Positions 4,375-62,562 of a stretch of 64,000 nt of DNA are shown piece after piece. The notes under the pieces were generated by a model, which searched no databases, had not been told where the DNA came from, and saw only the letters and a program-made list of their open reading frames with translations. Source of the DNA: Moniliella sp. 'wahieum'. Taxonomy: Eukaryota. Position 1 is the first letter of the stretch; each line of letters opens with the position of its first letter. The translations under genes and the position numbers were made by a program. The DNA is taken from contig RSEE01000036.1 in the NCBI GenBank assembly GCA_003971905.1, positions 62,001 to 126,000 of the forward strand. The letters run 5' to 3'.

Positions 4375-5331
4375 ATGCCGCCCACGCCGCTCCCGCTCTC
4401 CAGCGACGACATTGACGACCTGCTCTTCCCCGCCCGCTACGGGGACGTTGACGAGCTCGCCGCTGCGCTCGACCGCCTCGCCCACGCCCACGGCGACGCC
4501 CCGGACACGCGCTCGCGGGTCCTCCTTGCCGCCCACAACGACAGTGGCAACACCCCGTTGCACTATGCCGCTGCCAACGGCCACAACGGTACGTTTTTTT
4601 TTCCCTCGGGGCATGTACCTTGCCCTTGCCCTTGCCCTTGCCGCTGAGGCTTGGATGGATGGATGGCTTGGGCAGGTTCCTCTGACACATCTCGGTTCCT
4701 TTTTTTTGTTGTTTTTTTCGTCTCCCATACACTGCTACCCTCCCCGTATCCTCCCCGTACCCGTACTGTACCCGCGTGCTATGCTGTCTGCATGTCATCG
4801 CGCGTGCACCCGCCCACAGACGTGGTAACCTACCTCGCCCCGCACTTGCCGGCGGTACAGCTGATTGCGCAAAACGACGCGGGCAACACGCCGCTGCACT
4901 GGGCTGCGCTCAATGGGCACCTGAGCACCGTCAAGCAACTGGTCGACCTCATCGAGTCGGAGGAGAGTGCGGCGCAACTGGCCCAGATGGACGTCAAGCC
5001 TCACCTTGCCCACCGCGAGGAGGAGCACGCTGCGACCGCCAATGCCAATGCGGATGGGGATATCCCTGAGCCACCGGCGTGGGACATTCGGAACGCTGCG
5101 GGCCGAGGACCCATGTCGGAAGCCGAGATGAACGGTAAGGAGGAGGTGGTGCAATTCCTGTTGGAGTGTTCGATTGTTGGGTCCAACCAGCAGGGGGTGA
5201 AGGACGAGGAGGAGGACCAACAACCCGAAGCGAATGGTACCGGTACTGGCACCGGCACCGGCAACGACGACGACGACGACGATGATGTACCAGACCAAGA
5301 TTATGACAAGGTCCTCCCTCCTACCGCGTAG
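4375..5331 (+). CDS. YAR1: Ankyrin-repeat protein Yar1 (Rps3 chaperone); intron 4589-4819
   Basis: DDLLFPARYGD, NDSGNTPLHYAAANGHN|DVV, QNDAGNTPLHWAALNGHLSTVKQL, IRNAAGRGPMSEAE, acidic tail; the intron joins in frame. Confidence 0.85.
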
Positions 5332-5509: not shown

Positions 5510-6340
5510 CTAGAGCTGCACGGGATGAGCACCACCATCTTGGACCACCGATCCACCACCAGCACCATGTTCAGCGTCTCGCCCTTGCTCCCAAGTCCTC
5601 CCTCTGGTAAGGGACCGAACTGATCCATACTGAAGCTCGACCAAGGCCGGGCTGGTACTTCCAACGGCTACAGTAGACCGTAAGGGCGATGGCGGCGGCT
5701 CTTGGCAGTCTGACACGGCGAGCACGTTCCCACATATAGCGTCGCACATCGAAAGTCATTCCTGGCCAATAGTACCACCGCGCCAACTGATCGTACGTGC
5801 GTTCTCTTCCTTGGTATCCAGCCTCGGGCTTGTCATGGTGGTCATGGAGCAAGGTATACCGCAGCGCTTCAGACTCGGGCACGTAGAGTCTCCCTTGGAA
5901 GTAGAGCAACCCGTCACGCACCTCATACCCCTGCGGCGCACAACCTTCGCAACGCTTGATATCCCACTCCCCAACGTTGCTCGGCGGGCGTAAGCTTCCT
6001 TGACCAATAGGCTATGGGGCGCTGCCGCCCTCGTGAGGCTGAGAGAGGACCGCTGCCACAGCATACCCACTCGCGTCCGACTCGGTTCTCAAAGGCTTGT
6101 TCTGGATCGAAGGCGCCAGTACTGGGCTGGAGTAAACGCAGTTCCTTGAGCCGATCGAAGCAACGCCGGTGCTCAGAGGTCCATTCCCAGCGCTGGCCCG
6201 TGTGAAGCAACTGAGTCAGGGGGCGGGCGGTGTACTGCGAGTAGGAGGGCACATAGATTCTGCAGAAGCTCATAACGCGCAAAGTGCGGAGCAGCTCCTT
6301 CGGCGTCTTGGGTAGGCCATGGCGCGCAGCAAGGGGGTGT
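5510..6340 (-). mobile_element. Degenerate Ty3/gypsy retrotransposon pol fragment (RT connection, partial RNase H, integrase N-terminus)
   Basis: PKTPKEL...FCRIYVPSYSQYTARPLTQLL...WEWTSEHRRCFDRLKE; RPIAYWSRKLTPAEQRW; GRLYVP..LRYTLLHDHHD..GYQGRERTYDQLARWYYWPGM; VPARPWSSFSMD..GPLP..VLVVDRWSKMVVLIP. The RT-RH-INT order is gypsy-type. No LTRs seen. Confidence 0.9.
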
Positions 6341-6792
6341 CGGGCACGCCTAATAACAGCCATGCAGGACCCCCGGGAGCTCAGGGCGCGCAGACTTAGC
6401 CGTCCGCGGCAGACGGCAGGCGCCCGAGGCCTCCTTGAGGACCTTCCACGTGCGGTCTGCCACGGTAGCCGGTGGTCAAGGCGAATGCCCCTGACTCCTG
6501 CTGCGGACGCGGGGGGAAAACAGCGCCCAGACCAACACGAGAAAAGAGCCCACCGTGCGGACAGTGGCGCAGTGCTGTGTGGGCGCGCTCTTCCTCCTCG
6601 GCAAAAAAAGGCACAAGTGCGCGGATGAGACCCTGGGAAGGTGGGTGCACAGGCCACCCGTCCCACACAAGTGACTAGTGACTCCACCACCTTCTTAAGC
6701 CGCCCATCCGGCGTGTCCTTCCCCGCCCCCACCACCCCACCCCTCCTCCTATACCCCTTTCCTCGGCCGCCAGAACCGTTGACCAGCAAGCA

Positions 6793-9700
6793 ATGTCGTA
6801 CCAGCTGTTGCGCACCACTCTCCCCGACGCCCAGCGCGACGAGGTGGCCTCGATTGTCCGCTCCAACCACCATCTCGAGGTGGAGACCTCCTTCCAACGC
6901 AGCCGTGCGACCGCCATCAAGATTGCCGACACGCTCGATTCCAAGTACGGGGGCGAGTGGAGCGGCATTGTCGTCCCCACTATGCCATCTTTGCGCGCGA
7001 AGACGAAGGCCACGTTTTCCGCTGCCAGATTGACCAACAGATCTACACCTTTTGGAAGAACACGCCGTCGGGCAAGGCCGCAGGAGAACAGCTGTCGGCA
7101 GAACATCTCGGTCCCCTCTTTGTCAACAGTTTGAGTTGATGCGAACCACCATGCCCGACTGGCAGAGCGACGAGGTCACACGTTGGTTCAGGAGATGTCA
7201 CACCTGGAGGAGGAGACCAACTTCACGCGCAGCCGTGCGACAGCAATCCAGATTGCCAACAAGCTTGATGGCAAGTACGGCGGCAACTGGAGTGGCTCAT
7301 TGGTCCTCACTATGCCTCTACGCCCGTGAGGACGCCGGTACCTTTTACCGCTGCAAGATTGGACCACAGATCTACACCTTCTGGAAAACAGTGGTTCATG
7401 TGGTGGCGGCAAGGCGACGGCCGCCCAGATCCAGGCACGGATGACGGTGCATGACTTTAAGATGGAAGAGTGGATGAAGAGCCGCTCGCTTGAAGTGATC
7501 GCTACGGGGCTGGCCGAACACGACAGCTCGGTTGATGACTTCACCGTTTGGGTTGCCCACCGTCTTGACGATGTGCTTGGTGTTGGCTGGGGCTGGCGCT
7601 GCTTTGACGAAACGGGTCGGTGGACATGCCACCACCAAAAGGCTGCGCAGTACAACCTCCGCATCAGTACGTTTCTTCTTCCGCTTCACACGTGTGAGGG
7701 GCGTGAGCGCTGACTCGCATGCAGACTACATGACGCACTATGTGACGGTTTGGTTCTACGGTGCGACGGGCACGCAGCAGCAAGTCGGGGAGCAATCCTC
7801 GTTTGGTAACTCGGAGACTACCTACCATACCGCCGCGACATTTACCGCGCACCAAACAGTTGTCTCTGGCACTACCAGTTCATCTCAGACCCAAATCACT
7901 TCGGCTCAAATCCAGTCCCAGATCACGGTGCACGACTTCAAGATGGACGAGTCGATGAAGAGCCAGTCGATCCAAATTATTGCCACTGGCTTGGCGGAGC
8001 ACGATGGTTCGGTCGATGAATTTACTGTGTGGGTTGCTCACCAACTCGACCAAGTGCTCAATGTCGGCACGGGATGGCGCTGCTTTGATGAGACGGGACG
8101 CTGGACGTGCCACCACCAGAAGGCGGCGCAGTACAACCTTCGCATCAGTATGTGCATCTCCTTTCGCATGGGATAAAGCGGCACTAACGTGTTTGTTTAA
8201 AGATTACCTCACGCACTATGTCACCATCTGGTTCTACCCGGAGACCAACACCCAGCAGCAAGTGGGCGAGCACGCTTCCTTTGCCAACTCGGAGACTACC
8301 GTTCACACTCAAGAGACGTTTAGCGCGCACAAGCCCAAGTCGGGCTGGGGTTCCGGGGCGGCGTTGGGTGCAGCGGCGGGCGCGATTGCCGCTGGAGGGA
8401 TTGCAGCGGGTGTGGTTCACCACCAGCACTCTCAAGGGCAGCAGGGGTACGGCCAAGCCCAGGGCACCTTCCAGACGCAACAGCAACAGGGCTCTACATA
8501 TCAACACCAGGGTGCCATTCAGCAAGGCTCGTACCAGCAACCCCAAAACTACCCAACCCAGGGAGAGAAGCATGACCAACATCATGGTCTCGGTTCAGCT
8601 GTGGCGATTGGAGCAGGTGCCTTGGCCGTCGGGGGTATTGTTGGGGGCGTCATGCATCATGAGCACAAGCAAGGGACCCAAGAACACTATGCTGGTGCTA
8701 GCTCCCACCTTGAAAATGGCAAGGTGGCTGAGATCCAGTCCCAAATCACGGTGCACGACTTTAAGATGGACGAGTCGATGAAGACGCAGTCAATCCAAGT
8801 CATTGCCACTGGTCTGGCTATGCATTCCTCGTCGCTTGATGAATTTACGGTGTGGGTTGCGCATCAGCTTGACGTGGTACTGGGTGTGGGTACGGGCTGG
8901 CGCTGCTTTGACGAGGCGGGCCGGTGGACTTGTCATCACCAGAAGGCGGCACAGTACAATCTCCGCATCAGTACGTCTTCTGGCTGGCTTGTTTTTTCTT
9001 GTGGTCGATGCAGTACTGACCTATCTTTTCAGACTACCGCACACACTTTGTCACCATCTGGTTCTACCCGGGGACTAACACCCAGCAACAGGTGGGTGAG
9101 CACGCCTCCTTTGGCAACGCCGAGACGACGTTCCACACTAGTGAATCGTTTTTCTCCCAGACCAATGTGAACTGGAGCTCATCGACCACGAATGCGACGA
9201 CCGTGGGTGGCGAATTCACCGGCACGGGTTCTGGGCAGCAACACAACCAGCAAGGTGAGGCCGGTCAGGACTTTAATGCACAGCAGCAAAGTGTCACGTA
9301 TCAACAGAGCCAGCAGGAGCAGGAGCAGGTCCCCGACAAGAAGCATGGGTTTGGTACGGCGGCGGTGATCGGGCTAGGTGCCGCAACGGTGGGGGGCATC
9401 ATGGGTGCGCTTTCGAGCAAGAAGCACGACCATGCAGAACACGGCGGCTCGTTTTCTTCCCAACACCAACAGGCGCATCAAGACACCAGTTCGCACCAAA
9501 GCAAGTTTTCGGGATTTTGGTCCGGATCAACTGGCCAAGGCGGCGAGAGCACCACTACCACTACCTATAACCGAGTCGCAGGACAAGCCTGGTCTCTTCA
9601 GTTCCCTCAAGTCTGGAGTCCTGGGCGGAGGCACACGCCTTGCCGAGATGAGTGGGATGGTCACGGCGGGGGGCGTGCAACGGTCCAGAGTGTACAGACG

Positions 9701-10144
9701 CGTTTTTCAACTCTGACTGGACAATCTAAGGCCCAGCTGCAGAGTACGACGACTGTCGAAAGTTCGGTTGGAGTGAGTGAGCACCAGGAGACGATCGTTG
9801 GTGTTACCCACGATGTGCTGCAGATGAAGTTGGGCCCGCAGGAGTTCCTCCCTACGCTCGCCTCTCGTCTGACTCAGCAGTTGGGCCCGGGCTGGCATGT
9901 GTTTATGGGGACGGACTTCAACCATGAAGTGACGGGCCAGGCTCAGCGCTACCTGCTCTACACAGTCGGTGGACTCAAGTTCACAGTCGTCCATTCGACA
10001 GAGGACGTTGCGTGGAAGCAGCAGTCAATGACCTCGTACCCGTCCGGCCCTGACGACCACCACGTACACCCAGGGCCCCACTACCACCACCACCACGACC
10101 CAGAAGGTACACCACCTACACGTCCAACTCCCCAGATCAACTAG
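6793..10144 (+). CDS. Uncharacterised repeat protein with six tandem dynein light chain (LC8)-like domains, Q/H/T-rich linkers and glycine-zipper motifs
   Basis: Two type-A repeats (LDSKYGGEWSGIV / LDGKYGGNWSG ... QIYTFWK); three type-B repeats (TVHDFKMDESMK...VAHQLD.VL..GWRCF...HYVTIWFY), each with an intron at the same site (7667-7724, 8148-8202, 8971-9032); one type-C (LASRLTQQLGPGWHVFMGTDF...YLLYTVGGLKFTVVHS). Several indels. Confidence 0.7.
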
Positions 10145-16990: not shown

Positions 16991-19900
16991 ATGCGTCTGC
17001 CGTCGTACTCGGGCCCGTTCCAAGTCGGTTGCATCGACCTCGAGGTGCCTGTCCGCCGCCCCCGCACCTACGGCACCGACATTGTGCCTCCCGAGGTGCT
17101 CAACAAACCGCAGTACCGCCATCCGCTGCGCAGCACGCTCCAGCGCTGGCTGTTCCAGCGGCGCGTGCGCGATGGTGTCCGCCGCAGAAGCAAGGCCTAT
17201 TCCTTGTGGCTCGACATGCACGGTCTGGCCTTCACCGAGGGACCTCCAGGCCGTACCCGAACGCGCCACCACCATGCCAAGCGTCATGCGCATCGCCGTG
17301 CCCCCCCCGCCGCCCGACACGTGCTCCCAGCGCGCCAAGGACAGCAGAACCAAAACCAACCCCATTACTGCCAAACCCTCCGATCGGCCCGAACCGACCG
17401 CAGGAGGAAACGGCAGTACTCGTATTGCGTTGACGACGATCACGATCCAAGCGATTTGAATCCGTTTAGTTACAACTCCAAAACCTCCACTTTGCACTTG
17501 GAAACGGTTCTGTTTACTCTGTACTACCCCTCGTCCTACGTGCCTTGCACCTCCACCGCCTTCCCACCGCACAAGCACCACAAGGACACGTACAGCGCAG
17601 CCACATGGGTCAGTCGGCCGCTGCGCAAATCCCTTGCAGGCCTTCTGGCTACCTGGGCCAGTATGGAGCAGTGGGGATGCTAGCCTCGCCTGCGGTGGTG
17701 TCCTTGTTGAATGCGACGCTTCCTGTGCACGTAGGTGCGCCGCTCGCTTCGCCCGCGGACGAACGGATGGAGGCAATTGCGTTTCCGCGTGCCATGGGCG
17801 AGGGGGAACAGATGCGCACCCAGCGCCAACGAGAGAAGCGAGAGAACAACAAGACCATTCTCCTGACTTTGACCGTGCCAGCCCATCGTTTTCAGGCAAG
17901 TTTGTGCGCTGGCTGCGGCGGGACGACCAAGAACGTTCGCCTCCGATGCAGCCTGGCACGCATGCCGACGCATCGGGAGAATGGTACACCGTTCCTGAAG
18001 GACAACCGGACCCTGTATTTGCCAGTGTGCACAATGGCAAGCACTTGCCCGTGATGATCTTTTCCCATGGCCTAGCGGGGTCGAGGACGAGTTACTCGCA
18101 GTACTGCGGTACGCTCGCTTCGCATGGCGTTCTTGTTGCTGCGCTAGAACATCGTGATGGTTCTGCGCTCCATACTGCTGTCCGCTCCACCCGTCCAGGC
18201 CATCGGGCAGGCATGCGCGCATTTCGTACGGACGATGGTCCGCCTATCCGGGGCGGGGGAAGACGCTCTCGCTCTCCCACCCCGACTGGCGGAGGGGGAG
18301 ATGAAGTGGATCCGTCTCGGCCGGCCGGGAACAGCTGGACAAGTTACCCGAGTCCAGCCCTGACGAGCAAGAACAGCGTATGCGACAAGAGGAAACTGCG
18401 CGGGCGAAGCAAGCCAAGTTCCGGTCGGACGTGCAAGCCTACAAGGAGAAAGGTTCTCGGTATACGCGGCAGTACGGGTCGGGGTTCGGGCGCGGGTACA
18501 TCAAGCGGAAGAGGATGGGGTATCTGCATCCACGTAACGCTGCAGTACCCCAACTACTGTTTGAGAAGTTCAACCTTCGTTCTTTCCCTACCGACCCGAC
18601 CAAGGAAGAAGCTGGGCTGCGTGCGGCTCAAATTAAGATGCGCATCGATGAGATCGAAGAGTGCCGGCACATTCTGCACCGTATCAACCGCGGGGAAGGG
18701 TACGATGTGTATCTCGAGAGCACGCGCGGGCTAGGATCCAAGTTGGCGCGCAACCACGCCACGCCACACCTCCAGCGGAAAGCCTCATAGCCAACCCTTT
18801 GCAATTGAAGGAATGGCAAGGGCAGCTGGACGTTGACAACATTTTCCTTGTGGGCCACTCCTTTGGCGGGTGCACCGTCGCCGAGGCGCAGCGCAACCTC
18901 GCTACCCCCCTTTCCGTCGGGACTAATGCTGGATCCATGGACGGAACCCATGTCGGAGCAAGGCACGATTGACCGTCCCTCTTTGCCATGAACTCGGAGA
19001 CGTTCACAGTCTGGCAAGAGTCGTTTGATAAGCTGAAACGGATCTGTCATGGAGCTCGACAAGAGGCAGAGGGACGAGGATGGATCCTCACGTTGGCCGG
19101 GACGGATCATCTTAGCTTTAGTGACTTGCCTATCATTCTCCCGCACCTCCTTCGGTCTGCAGTCAACCCGCTCAAGTAAGCACGCATCCCTCCCCTCAGG
19201 CCCTCAGGCCGTATTGCTACACCTTCTGTTCTGGATTACCGATTACGATCGAGAGACACTCACTAACCCCCCATTCCTGTCCTCTTCTCCCCTTTGGACG
19301 CACAGATCAGTGGCCATCTTTGCTCTCGCAACCTATACCCAACTAGGTCTGATGCTGCAGACGAAGCATCCCACCATCGCGCTTTCGCACGACCAGCTCA
19401 AAGCCGCCGTGGAAGCAGTCGAGCCGTCGTCTACCTCTTCCTCTCCGAACCGGGCGTACTTTTTCGCCCCCCCCCATGGCGTGGGAGGGGAAGAAGGCGA
19501 GCCGATCCCGGCCGGGGCAGAGGAACTCGGTACCGAACGAACCGAACGAACCGAACGAACCTCCCCAAGCCGACGCAGTGGTGTGGGAGGTGTGATTGCC
19601 CATCGCTCTCCTAGCGGTAACTTGGTCACGGAAGAACGCCAACCTACTGATCCCGTCGACTTTGTCGATAGTGCGCATTTGATCCGCGCGATCGAGCGGG
19701 CGACGGAAGGCGCGGCAGGCGGACGGGACAGCGCGTTGCGGCCTGATACGGATGCGGATGCGGATGCGGATGCGGATGCGGATGCGGATGCGGATGCGGA
19801 TGCGGAGAGTCAGTTGACAGCGGCTCCAGTCCCGGAGCGGAGGGCAACATGGTCGTCTGTCGATTGCTCCCCACCGGAGGGTACGGTCCCAGGTACAGGT

Positions 19901-31922: not shown

Positions 31923-33539
31923 ATGGCCGCCCCGTCCCCACTGGGTAACCTAACGACGATCATCAAGCGCCTTGAGGCCGCCACCTCTCGTCTCGAGGAC
32001 CTGGCTGAGGCCCAGCAGGCTGCTGGCGCCCCCACGGCGCCGTTGCCCTCGGTGGCCCCCGCTGTTCCGGCTGTTGCCGCCGGCGCAGTTGCCGGGGCTG
32101 CTGGAGCAGCGGCTGGCTCTGGAGGTGCCCTCGCCCCTCCTCCTCCTCCTCCACCGCCCCCCCTCCTGCGGCTGAACCTGCTGCGCCCGCTCAGCCCGAG
32201 GAGCCCAAGGTGGTGGAAGCGTTTGACGAAGCAGTCAACGAGCCGCTGGCCAAGTTTGTGGAGCTGAGCAACCAGATCGGTGGACTGGTGGCTGATCAAG
32301 CGCGTGACTTTGCCAAGACGTTTGAGGCGCAGCGTGCGCTTATCTGGACTGCTGCAGAGAGCAAGAAGCCAGCGGAGGGATTTGCGACGCCTGGGAGCCA
32401 AGAGTTGCTCAAGCCGTTGCAGGACGCCGTGATGGCCACCACCGAGGTACGCGAGAAGAACCGTGCGGAGCGCAAACTGTTCAACCACCTCTCTGCCGTT
32501 TCGGAAGGCGTGCCCGCTGTGGGTTGGGTAGCGGTCGAGCCCAAGCCTGCTCCGTTTGTAGGCGAAATGAAGGACGCGGCGCAGTTTTACTCCAACCGTG
32601 TGATCAAGGAGTTTAAGGACGTGGACAAGACCCATGTTGAATGGACCCGGGCACTAGCGGCGCTTCTTACCGCACTTCAGGCGTACGTCAAGCAGTACCA
32701 CACTACGGGGTTGGTGTGGAACCCTAAGGGTGGTGATGCGCTCTCGTTTAAAGTGCCCGGGGCTGCTGCCGGGGCGACTGCTGCTCCCCCTGCGCCTCCT
32801 GCGCCCCCTGCCCCGCCTGGTGCCCCTGTGCCTCCTCCTCCTCCTCCCGTTGCCGCATCTGCCCCTGCAGGCAGCATGGATGCTGTCTTTGCGCAGTTGA
32901 ACCAGGGCGAGGGGATCACCAAGGCGCTCAAGAAGGTGGACGAATCGCAGAAGACCCACAAGAACCCCGAGTTGCGCGGCCATACGGACAGTTCGAACCC
33001 GCATGCAACTGCATCTGCGCGGCCCAAGGTGCCGTCGAAGCCGGCCTCGTTGCGGGCTAAGAAGCCACCCGTCTTGGCTCTGGAGGGCAACAAGTGGATC
33101 GTGGAGAACCAAGAGAACGAGCGGAACATTGTCATCAAGGACACCGAGTTGGGCCACACGATCAATATCTTCCATTGCACCTCGACCACCGTCCAGGTCA
33201 AGGGCAAGGTGAACCAAATCAACATTGTGGGGTACTAAGCTCTCGCTCGTATTTGATTCGGTAGTGGCTTCGGTTGACATTACTCGCTCGCCTTCGTTTG
33301 AGGTGCAGGTGACGGGCAAAGTGCCTACCATTCTCCTGGACGGGTGCGACTCGGGCCAGGTTTACCTCTCGGCAGAATCGCTCGACGTGGACATTGTTAC
33401 GGCCAAGTGCTCGGCCATCAACGTCTCGGTCCCCAAGGAAGGATCGGACGAGTTCACAGAGCTTGCCCTGCCGGAACAGATGAAGCACACCTTCCCCGGT
33501 GGCAAGCTCCAGACGGAGATTGTGGCGCATGCTGGCTGA
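31923..33539 (+). CDS. SRV2: Adenylyl cyclase-associated protein CAP/Srv2
   Basis: IIKRLEAATSRLEDLA, FNHLSAVSEG, AAQFYSNRVIKEFK, YVKQYHTTGLVWN, LKKVDESQKTHKNPELR, EGNKWIVEN, EIVAHAG*. Confidence 0.95.
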
Positions 33540-34059: not shown

Positions 34060-35371
34060 TTAGCTCTTGGCAAGCGGTGGCCTCGAGGGGTCCTTGGACG
34101 CCTCATTGGGCGATGCCGCGGTAGACTGATCGTGTTCGGAAGTAGGCAAGGGCGAACTGGAGCGGGAAGTGGGGGGGGAAGGGCTGCTGGCGTTATTCCT
34201 ATCGGACGCAGAACCAATGTGGAGTCCAGCCAGGCTCTCAAGCAGGCCCTCAGCCTCCACATTTTCCTCGATAGGCAGTGGCAGTGGCACCTCTGAAGTG
34301 CTCTTAGAGAGGTCTTTGTCCGTGGCAGCTTCTACCGCGCCAGCTGCGGTATCTTGGGCCGTTTCCCCAGCCTCGTCCTCCGCTGAGGGCGTTGGCACCA
34401 GAGGGTCCGTAACAAGGCCCACATCTGCCGCAGCCTTCGCTGCGGCCTGTCCTGCCGAGGGTGGGGGGTGGCGGCATCTGCACGGCTCTCGTGCCGATGT
34501 AGGTTGGCAGCATGAATCCTATCCAGGTCTTGTTCCCAGCCAAGCAACTTGGTCAACTGCCGAACCACATCATCGCAGCTTCCCAACAACGCCACGTCGT
34601 TCCCGCGCCCGGTGGAACGGAAACGGAACTTGTTCCCAGCTGGGTATAGGTCTCTGTTAATGAGAACTGAGGTGGCTCCTTTTTTGGCAGAGTAGATCAG
34701 GCTTCCAAACGGGTCGACCACCAGGCTGGTACCCAAAACGAGGATAATATCGGCGCGCTCGACATCGTCCATGTGATCAAAGAATCGGGCGGGCAATCCT
34801 TCTCCGAAAAAGACAATGTCGGGTTTTACCAAGCCTGCCTCGCCGCGCGCTTTGAGGGCGGAGCAGGAGGGGCTTTCGCAGCGCGCAACCGTGCCGCGGA
34901 GAACGTGTGCCTTGACCCGTGCCGCGTCGGCGAGGGAGCGACAGGCAATGCAGCTGGCAGTGGCAAAGGAACCATGCGCCTCGACCAGCTTGTCTTCCGG
35001 CACGCCGGCCGCCCGCTCCAGACCATCGATGTTCTGTGTGAGGAGGGTGAGGAGGCGCTGCTTGTGGTGGAGAAGGGCGTAGAAACTGTGGGTCAGGGTG
35101 GGGGGGTAATTGACGCCGGGCCAGAGGTCGCGGGCCAGAGTGAAGAATGGCTGTGGCCGCTCTTCAAAATACTCGAGATCGAATACAGCCTCTGGATAGG
35201 GAAGGTCGTACGCAGCCAAATTGGCATAGAGCCCAGTCCCGGGGCTGCGGAAGTCGGGAATGCCGGCCGAGGTAGAGGTGCCGGCGCCGGCAAGGACAAC
35301 GACGCGCTTCTTGGGGTCGCGGAGGAGGGCGGCGACGTGCTCCAAGTCGGCAGGAGAGGTGATGGCGGCAT
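34060..35371 (-). CDS. HST2: NAD-dependent deacetylase, class I sirtuin (Hst2/SIRT2-like)
   Basis: GAGTSTSAGIPDFRSPGTGLYANL, TQNIDGLE, VEAHGSF, CxxC..CxxxxC, VKPDIVFFGE, GTSLVVDPF; ends approximate because of indels. Confidence 0.9.
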
Positions 35372-36203
35372 GGGGCGGAGCAGGCGCTGGACCCGCCGGG
35401 CGAAGGGGATGTGGGGGCGAGGAAGGGATGGTGGCGGTGTGGCGGTGTGGCGGTGTGGTGGTTCTGAAGCGGGGGGGGGGGGGATGGAGGTGGTGGAGGT
35501 GGGAGGGGTGAAAAAAAAATGACGGTGCGGTGGCGGAATGGGACGGGCGGAATAGGGTGTGACGTGCGCTTATCGGGTGGAGCCAAGACTGTGCTGGGGA
35601 TGAAGCGACGGGTGGAATAGCGAAATTAATGGGAATGCCGGTGCTGGTTCGGCGGCGGGAGGCTGCTGCTGAGGCGCTGACGTACCTGCGCTGAGTCAGT
35701 CATAAGATCCGGGCCTGTCCGATGCCTCGTGGCACGGGCGCCCGAGCATCTAAGTGTGCTTACGTGGGACACAGCCTCGCTGCTGGGTGGTGCTGTGATG
35801 CATGATGCATGCGTGCAATGATCAGGTCGATTGCCGGATCGAGTAGGTCTTTTGAATGGCAGGTCTTAGGCCTGCCTTGGGCCGTGGGCCTTAGGCCCGA
35901 TTAGATCGGGTAGCCGGCTTGCTCGCACTATACTGCCGAACCATGCCGACTCTCGCCGTGCCCCCCACTAGCCACTAGCCACTAGCCGCTATCCACTCAG
36001 CACCGGCGCCCGCAGCCGGGATGCGGCAGGAGGGCTCAGTCAATAACCCCACGTGCTCAGCTTGCTCGTCTTGCACTCAGCCTCTCAGCGCAACGTTCGT
36101 ATCCTTCTCAGCAGGCTTCGCTTGCCTCGCCGCCTATTTCGAGCCCATCCCCCCCCCCGCTCCTTCGCCTCTCCCCCTCACCTGCCCTCGCACCCCCCCC
36201 GCC

Positions 36204-61187: not shown

Positions 61188-62562
<1,375 letters not shown>

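Follow-up and report, generated by a model that had tools for sequence, protein, structure and literature searches.

Can a fungus carry, within a single polypeptide, a whole series of domains of the kind that the dynein light chain LC8 forms on its own? The question is raised by contig RSEE01000036.1 of Moniliella sp. 'wahieum' (assembly GCA_003971905.1), of which we analysed 64,000 nucleotides (nt) at contig positions 62,001 to 126,000 of the forward strand, referred to here as the window. Work on LC8 has treated it as a hub, a small dimer by which disordered partners with many binding motifs are zipped together. A first-pass annotation of the window had described positions 6793-10144 as a polyprotein of six tandem LC8-like domains. 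Our analysis indicates that 6793-10144 on the plus strand is probably one predicted protein-coding gene with 4 exons, encoding a chain of about 1,060 amino acids (aa) with six LC8-like domains in the order A1-A2-B1-B2-B3-C, and this judgement is a joint one for the whole explanation, including the mechanism proposed below. The guanine-cytosine (GC) content of the gene stretch is 57-63%.

The reading as one gene comes from its introns and from a relative. All three introns have the form GTAYGT...AG (donors GTACGT or GTATGT) with CTRAC branch boxes (CTGAC or CTAAC), and all are in phase 1 and interrupt an identical codon of the B repeat, between NLRI and N-Y-x-T-H-x-V-T-x-W-F-Y. Their shortness, donors and branch boxes are those expected of a fungus. 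Joining 7441-7666, 7725-8147, 8203-8970 and 9033-10144 (2,529 nt in all) gives a clean open reading frame (ORF) of 842 aa that ends at the stop codon TAG (10142-10144). Because each intron falls between strand 4 and the last strand of a B domain, the exons are not separate small genes and must be joined, and because the last B strand runs directly into an extension, a linker and the next domain, they make sense only as one spliced chain. Besides, a relative from the protein collections, P0006 (322 aa), holds A1, linker, A2, linker and B1 in one uninterrupted ORF. The split B domains and the single ORF of the relative thus bear out the single gene proposed by the first-pass annotation. Its three introns after which the gene reads through were recovered as GT..AG introns, each in a B repeat and at the same codon; its two A, three B and one C repeats were all present where it had placed them, and so were all the peptides that it had quoted (LDSKYGGEWSGIV, IYTFWK, DFKMDESMK, GTGWRCF, VTIWFY, LTQQLGPGWHVFMGTDF and FTVVHS). 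It was also right to allow for indels, as six single-base corrections are needed in the A region according to a frameshift-aware alignment to P0006. The word polyprotein was the wrong one, as nothing points to proteolytic processing; a cleaved precursor was considered and rejected for want of any sign of cleavage.

The A and C domains were identified as LC8-like by sequence. The Pfam family of LC8, PF01221 (Dynein_light), has a profile of length 86 and a gathering cut-off of 29.1 bits. P0006 matched it in three stretches with 75.6 bits and an expectation value (E) of 4.1e-21, above the cut-off, and 15/15 of its listed matches in the PDB were dynein light chains. The window's own A pieces, cut by frameshifts, reached 15.3 bits for the N-terminal A1 piece (E 0.027) and 12.1 bits (E 0.26) against the same profile. 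The C domain scored 27.4 bits (E 4.4e-6) over profile positions 11-82 of 86, and it matched yeast Dyn2 in a phmmer search of the PDB with E 9e-5, gap-free over residues 2-84 (83 residues), where dynein light chains made up 33 of its 34 matches. An hhalign comparison of A with C from shallow alignments gave nothing significant. The Pfam check proposed earlier for these domains thus came out above the cut-off for A, by way of the ortholog P0006, and just below it for C.

For the B domain the likeness to LC8 appears at the level of the fold. The sequence tests on B, apart from hhalign, covered strands 1-4 only. A profile built from B alone and searched against the PDB gave a single match, an LC8-type chain at E 0.13 in the expected register, with 'FKMEESM' over 'DMSEEM' and 'GtGWkCf' over 'GpsWHCv'. 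The two Atlas clusters nearest to B by language-model features carry PF01221, with a score of 0.80 that is of lead-only grade. An AlphaFold2 model of B2, made from 6 sequences of the B family with neither an LC8 sequence nor a template, had a short first strand, of a single residue according to DSSP, then two helices and three strands, with a predicted local distance difference test (pLDDT) score of 64-80 in the domain. When this model was compared by VIA-align with 48,161 PDB representatives, the top 7 were all LC8-type or flatworm dynein-light-chain (DLC)-like chains (Z 6.6-7.7, root-mean-square deviation (rmsd) 1.6-2.5 Å over 65-74 residues) and the next chain had a Z of 5.1, and 33/33 of the matches listed by Foldseek were LC8-type entries. 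The length of B, the order of its secondary structure and its strand-2 motif 'G.GW.C' line up with LC8, and B has in addition an invariant block, GRWTCHHQK, of its own. On account of the structural matches and of its position between genuine LC8-like domains, B is very likely an LC8 derivative, and we assign the LC8 fold to the modelled domain with moderate confidence. The folding and structure search that had been suggested for a repeat, carried out here on B2, thus returned LC8 chains as the best structural matches; the wider claim of six LC8-like domains of three subtypes held by sequence for A and C, and for B only at the level of the fold with weak hints from sequence.

The array is also visible as direct repeats. 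A repeat of 250 nt occurs three times (7423, 7904 and 8727; 76-78% identity) and corresponds to the first exon part of B, and another of 126 nt, also threefold (7718, 8196 and 9026; 71-81% identity), corresponds to the last B strand with the conserved extension that follows it. Three further repeat families link A1 and A2 at 76-78% identity, and their start-to-start spacing drifts from 331 to 330 to 329 nt, which therefore indicates single-base register shifts between the two domains. The B copies differ from each other in 19-24% of their bases, with synonymous divergence (dS) of 1.2-1.6, non-synonymous divergence (dN) of 0.09-0.15 and dN/dS of 0.06-0.09. As dS is this high and dN merely 0.09-0.15, the B repeats are not a product of chance; judged from these sequence comparisons, the copies are under strong purifying selection with synonymous sites near saturation, so that the duplications are old and every copy constrained. 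The array probably grew by internal tandem duplication, the B unit being copied along with its phase-1 intron, and all copies have since been retained under purifying selection. The extension is a stretch of ~35 aa (..T.TQQQVGE.ASFGN.ETT.HT.E.F..) that follows every B domain on the plus strand, at 7760-7870, 8238-8348 and 9068-9178. It is found in the relatives P0004 and P0005 as well, is disordered in the B model, and might serve as a cis-ligand or add a further strand.

The relatives were looked for in an exhaustive phmmer search of 1.84 billion representative proteins, with the last strand of B1, the linker and B2 as query (P0001). Among its 8 matches at E <=0.001 there were 4 real relatives (P0004-P0007; E 1e-61 to 6e-24), all of them exon-sized ORFs that end in intron read-through. 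P0004 and P0005 are 73% and 64% identical to the exons of the window that join a last strand and linker to the next B, and the exon units are thereby kept in the relatives. The longest contig listed measures 3,925 nt for P0004 and P0006 alike, which we counted toward the continuity of the A and B parts. Searches from P0006 for near and for shorter proteins returned only P0006, P0005 and P0004, the protein search with the C-terminal exon (P0003, 202-646 aa) found no homologs, and no annotated or full-length homolog of the gene was present in the protein collections searched. The other 4 matches of P0001 (P0008-P0011, 765-2,646 aa) cover stretches of only 26-47 residues and were set aside. Of these, P0008 is a leucine-rich-repeat (LRR) protein of the RNI type that matches one B helix only: at residues 76-102 of P0001 the first B helix (MKSQSIQIIATGLAEHDGSVDEF) resembles the helix of the LRR repeat, many times repeated, with 35-38% identity over 23-26 residues, and it was rejected as a relative since this is a short motif resemblance and not homology.

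The A region required a closer look at the reading frame. A frameshift-aware alignment of P0006 with 6780-7680 found exactly six events, each of them one base missing in the window, at 6973, 7119, 7178, 7297, 7317 and 7391; the sites 7119 and 7391 lie in the linkers that flank A2. The corrected frames of the region have zero stop codons, and their codon identity to P0006 is 70% for A1 (62/89) and 84% for A2 (71/85, three gaps), with 84% for the unbroken B1 (64/76). The six gaps are most likely errors of sequencing or assembly and not signs of decay, because P0006 is unbroken and because another gene of the window also has a homopolymer frameshift. This is the gene for CAP/Srv2, the adenylate-cyclase-associated protein, at 31923-33539 on the plus strand, which has at least one frameshift: the CAP_C profile matches with positions 1-55 in one frame and, 8 nt away, with positions 59-157 in another, at the GGGG run of 'gtggggtac' (33226-33234). 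A second frameshift of this gene probably lies at a run of Cs at ~32153-32162, the N-terminal motif and CAP_N being in different frames. The assembly therefore holds homopolymer indels in coding regions. Programmed frameshifting was rejected as an account of the six gaps, as it would need an implausible six sites and P0006 keeps one frame throughout the region. Further downstream, the maximum of third-position GC departs from the frame of the gene at ~9460-9760, and the part from 9540 to 9720 may hold a compensating pair of indels. With single-base indels in its coding sequence, the gene is one that automatic annotation would miss or call a pseudogene.

Apart from the domains, the chain has long linkers, 188 aa between B2 and B3 and 226 aa between B3 and C, which are rich in Gly, Gln, Ala, His, Ser and Thr and include three hydrophobic Gly/Ala segments. 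No Pfam family matches the linkers, and the Atlas search with the B2-B3 linker had no usable match. The Gly/Ala-zipper segments could cross or re-enter a membrane as helices, or they could be motifs of self-association. A chain of LC8-fold domains embedded in a membrane, whose three segments would fix the paired modules in the plasma membrane or at an organelle and which would represent a class of tandem-LC8 scaffolds independent of dynein, is a doubtful extension of this. In such a chain, the invariant Cys-His-His block of B and the His-rich flanks could add assembly that depends on metal.

The LC8 fold pairs through a swapped beta-strand, which in the LC8 homodimer is strand 3, and holds extended peptide strands at the interface of the pair. 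As the fold pairs by strand swap and binds extended strands, we propose that the six covalently linked domains would act as a pre-assembled, multivalent module of pairing and scaffolding. Pairs may be formed inside one chain, e.g. of A1 with A2, or two chains may pair in register, and the Gly/Ala segments would serve as a membrane tether or as a driver of self-association. The alignments with Dyn2 show that several aromatic positions of strands 3-5 are replaced (FVYFY becomes FFRCK in A and YLLYT in C), and these positions we take to be residues of the groove in which LC8 holds TQT peptides. No TQT motif was found in the protein's own linkers. Since several of the groove aromatics are replaced in A and C and the linkers have no such motif, the ligands would probably be of a non-TQT kind, with classical TQT ligands and a role in dynein unlikely.

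Several observations weigh against this explanation of the locus. The C domain falls 1.7 bits short of the Pfam cut-off, the pairing and scaffolding are something that we purely infer, and an AlphaFold2 model of A1-A2-B1 from P0006, made with a 6-row alignment, was uninformative (mean pLDDT 42.7, predicted template modelling score 0.34). B has no significant sequence match to LC8: among 7 B sequences scanned with Pfam, PF01221 appeared in one (E 0.11) and nothing was reported for the other six, and hhalign with shallow alignments was not significant for B against A (E 0.35) or against C (E 0.019). The B model is without the last strand, which is encoded after the intron; its VIA Z of 7-8 counts as 'middling' by the tool's own grading, and its Foldseek matches have E-values of only 0.02-0.4 and rmsd of 7-10 Å. 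On these grounds one might hold that only A1, A2 and C are relatives of LC8 and that B is an unrelated, lineage-specific alpha/beta domain, as no significant sequence link leads from B to A, C or PF01221, its Foldseek E-values exceed 0.01 and its VIA Z stays below 8, and as a stretch of 23-26 residues of B resembles the LRR helix of P0008 (library search, E 1.3e-9; 26 residues with 38% identity). We find this quite unlikely, since that match concerns one helix only and misses the invariant GRWTCHHQK, while four independent, weak lines of evidence (the structure ranking, the register of the profile match, the Atlas features and the one Pfam scan in seven) all lead to LC8 and nothing else; the length, the order of secondary structure and the 'G.GW.C' motif fit LC8 too, and B is flanked by genuine LC8-like domains in one chain.

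The A region offers the other main objection. Its six frameshifts are crowded into ~650 nt (6793-7440) with none in the next 2,100 nt (7441-9540), which is uneven for random error, and A1 and A2 each miss one base in the same homologous stretch of 12 nt, which points to an error that depends on the sequence context or to a real change. A1-A2 might thus be a decaying remnant in front of a working gene that starts at Met 7441 and encodes four domains, B1-B2-B3-C, in 842 aa; B1 opens with an ATG exactly at the start of the domain, and the neighbourhood has been rearranged, with a truncated Ty3/gypsy fragment just upstream (5571-6183, minus strand). We regard such decay as unlikely, because every one of the six events is a single missing base, no stops occur in the corrected frames and A2 is as close to the relative as the intact B1, when neutral decay should have added substitutions and stops; besides, a conserved gene of the same assembly, CAP, is broken at homopolymers, and the residues before Met 7441 (..AAQIQAR) continue the linker motif that is conserved before B2 and B3. 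That the locus is not an expressed gene at all, but an array of dead duplicates or several small genes independent of one another, would agree with the missing annotated, full-length homolog but is highly improbable in view of the low dN/dS between the B copies, the open frame of 842 aa across three precisely conserved introns and the exon structure kept in the relatives, as the introns split domains and small genes would encode incomplete folds. The single gene with six LC8-like domains, its A region disturbed by errors of sequencing or assembly, is thus the explanation that we prefer, and its features are collected in Table 1.

Table 1. Predicted features of the tandem LC8-like gene, in window coordinates
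Feature	Position	Strand	Basis or remark
A1, LC8-like (Dynein_light) domain, from ATG	6793..7062	+	62/89 codons identical to P0006; one base missing at ~6973
A2, second A-type LC8-like domain	7121..7390	+	71/85 codons identical to P0006 A2, no stops; bases missing at ~7178, 7297, 7317
B1, B-type LC8-fold domain	7441..7759 (7441-7666 + 7725-7759)	+	84% identical to P0006 B1
Intron 1	7667-7724 (58 nt)	+	cuts B1
B2, B-type domain	7922..8237 (7922-8147 + 8203-8237)	+	copy used for the structure model
Intron 2	8148-8202 (55 nt)	+	cuts B2
Gly/Ala-rich hydrophobic segment 1 (SGAALGAAAGAIAAGGIAAGVVH), then His	8352..8420	+	Kyte-Doolittle 19-residue peak 1.86; conserved in P0005
Gly/Ala-rich hydrophobic segment 2 (HGLGSAVAIGAGALAVGGIVGGVMH), His and Lys flanks	8583..8657	+	Kyte-Doolittle peak 2.01; conserved in P0005
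B3, B-type domain	8745..9067 (8745-8970 + 9033-9067)	+	splicing frame and direct repeats
Intron 3	8971-9032 (62 nt)	+	cuts B3
Gly/Ala-rich hydrophobic segment 3 (GFGTAAVIGLGAATVGGIMGALSS)	9347..9418	+	Kyte-Doolittle peak 1.71
B3-C linker stretch, other frame more protein-like (..ITESQDKPGLFSSLKSGVLGGGTRLAEMSG..)	9540..9720	+	third-position GC and frame reading; no homolog of this exon found
C, C-terminal LC8-like domain	9743..10000	+	PF01221 profile and yeast Dyn2 match
His-rich C-terminal tail (..DDHHVHPGPHYHHHHDPEG..)	10060..10144	+	ends at TAG 10142-10144

The Ty3/gypsy-type retroelement fragment lies ~600 nt upstream of the start codon of the LC8 gene and shows RT_RNaseH_2 (E 2e-6) and Integrase_H2C2 (E 1e-12) in different frames, and no reverse transcriptase domain was found upstream. 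Other ORFs of the window match the Sir2 family (34335-35699, minus strand, E 5e-53), PAF acetylhydrolase (17460-18731, plus strand, E 7e-19) and ankyrin repeats (4648-5328, plus strand, E 1e-9). These genes are of an ordinary eukaryotic kind and show no evident connection with the LC8 gene.

The layout proposed here reverses the geometry of the LC8 hub, since here the hub domains follow one another along a disordered chain. Provided that pairing and strand binding have been retained, nature would have supplied a multivalent LC8 array with its units already linked, in which the effects of valency and linker length on hub assemblies could be studied. It would also be a fungal case of the LC8 fold put to use apart from dynein. 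The known sequence range of the fold would be widened by the B subtype, which profile searches miss. With 4 clusters of fragments among 1.84 billion representatives, the family is very narrow and may be of little general biological weight.

The first-pass annotation knew of no described fungal protein with six copies of LC8, and the portions of the literature available to us turned up none either; they contained no natural tandem-LC8 protein, the only described case of an LC8-like domain inside a larger protein being that of the flatworm proteins SmTAL, FhCaBP and CsTAL, in which EF-hands are fused to a DLC-like domain. As far as the accessible part of the source goes, this fusion is reported in trematodes only (PMC12347358). 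In the structure search with the B model, flatworm DLC-like domains ranked among the best matches (5fwz with Z 7.3, 5x2d with Z 7.1 and 9voa with Z 6.6); unlike the flatworm proteins, which combine one DLC domain with EF-hands, the gene described here has six LC8-like domains, and no EF-hand family was detected in Pfam scans of all its frames at E up to 10. InterPro may well list, without description, proteins of other eukaryotes with several PF01221 domains. The gene thus appears to combine domains of a known fold in a new architecture, with a layout that is seemingly undescribed and a B subtype that is newly recognisable. Like LC8, DYNLL1-2 and yeast Dyn2, its domains are of ~85-90 aa and are built of a strand, two helices and then four strands; A and C keep the strand-2 motif ('KYGG.W(H/S)' and 'GPGWH') and align with Dyn2 in full length, and the B model superposes on LC8 chains. 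LC8 itself is a free-standing homodimer of ~90 aa, whereas in Moniliella six copies of three diverged subtypes would follow one another in a predicted chain of ~1,060 aa, together with long low-complexity linkers and hydrophobic Gly/Ala segments.

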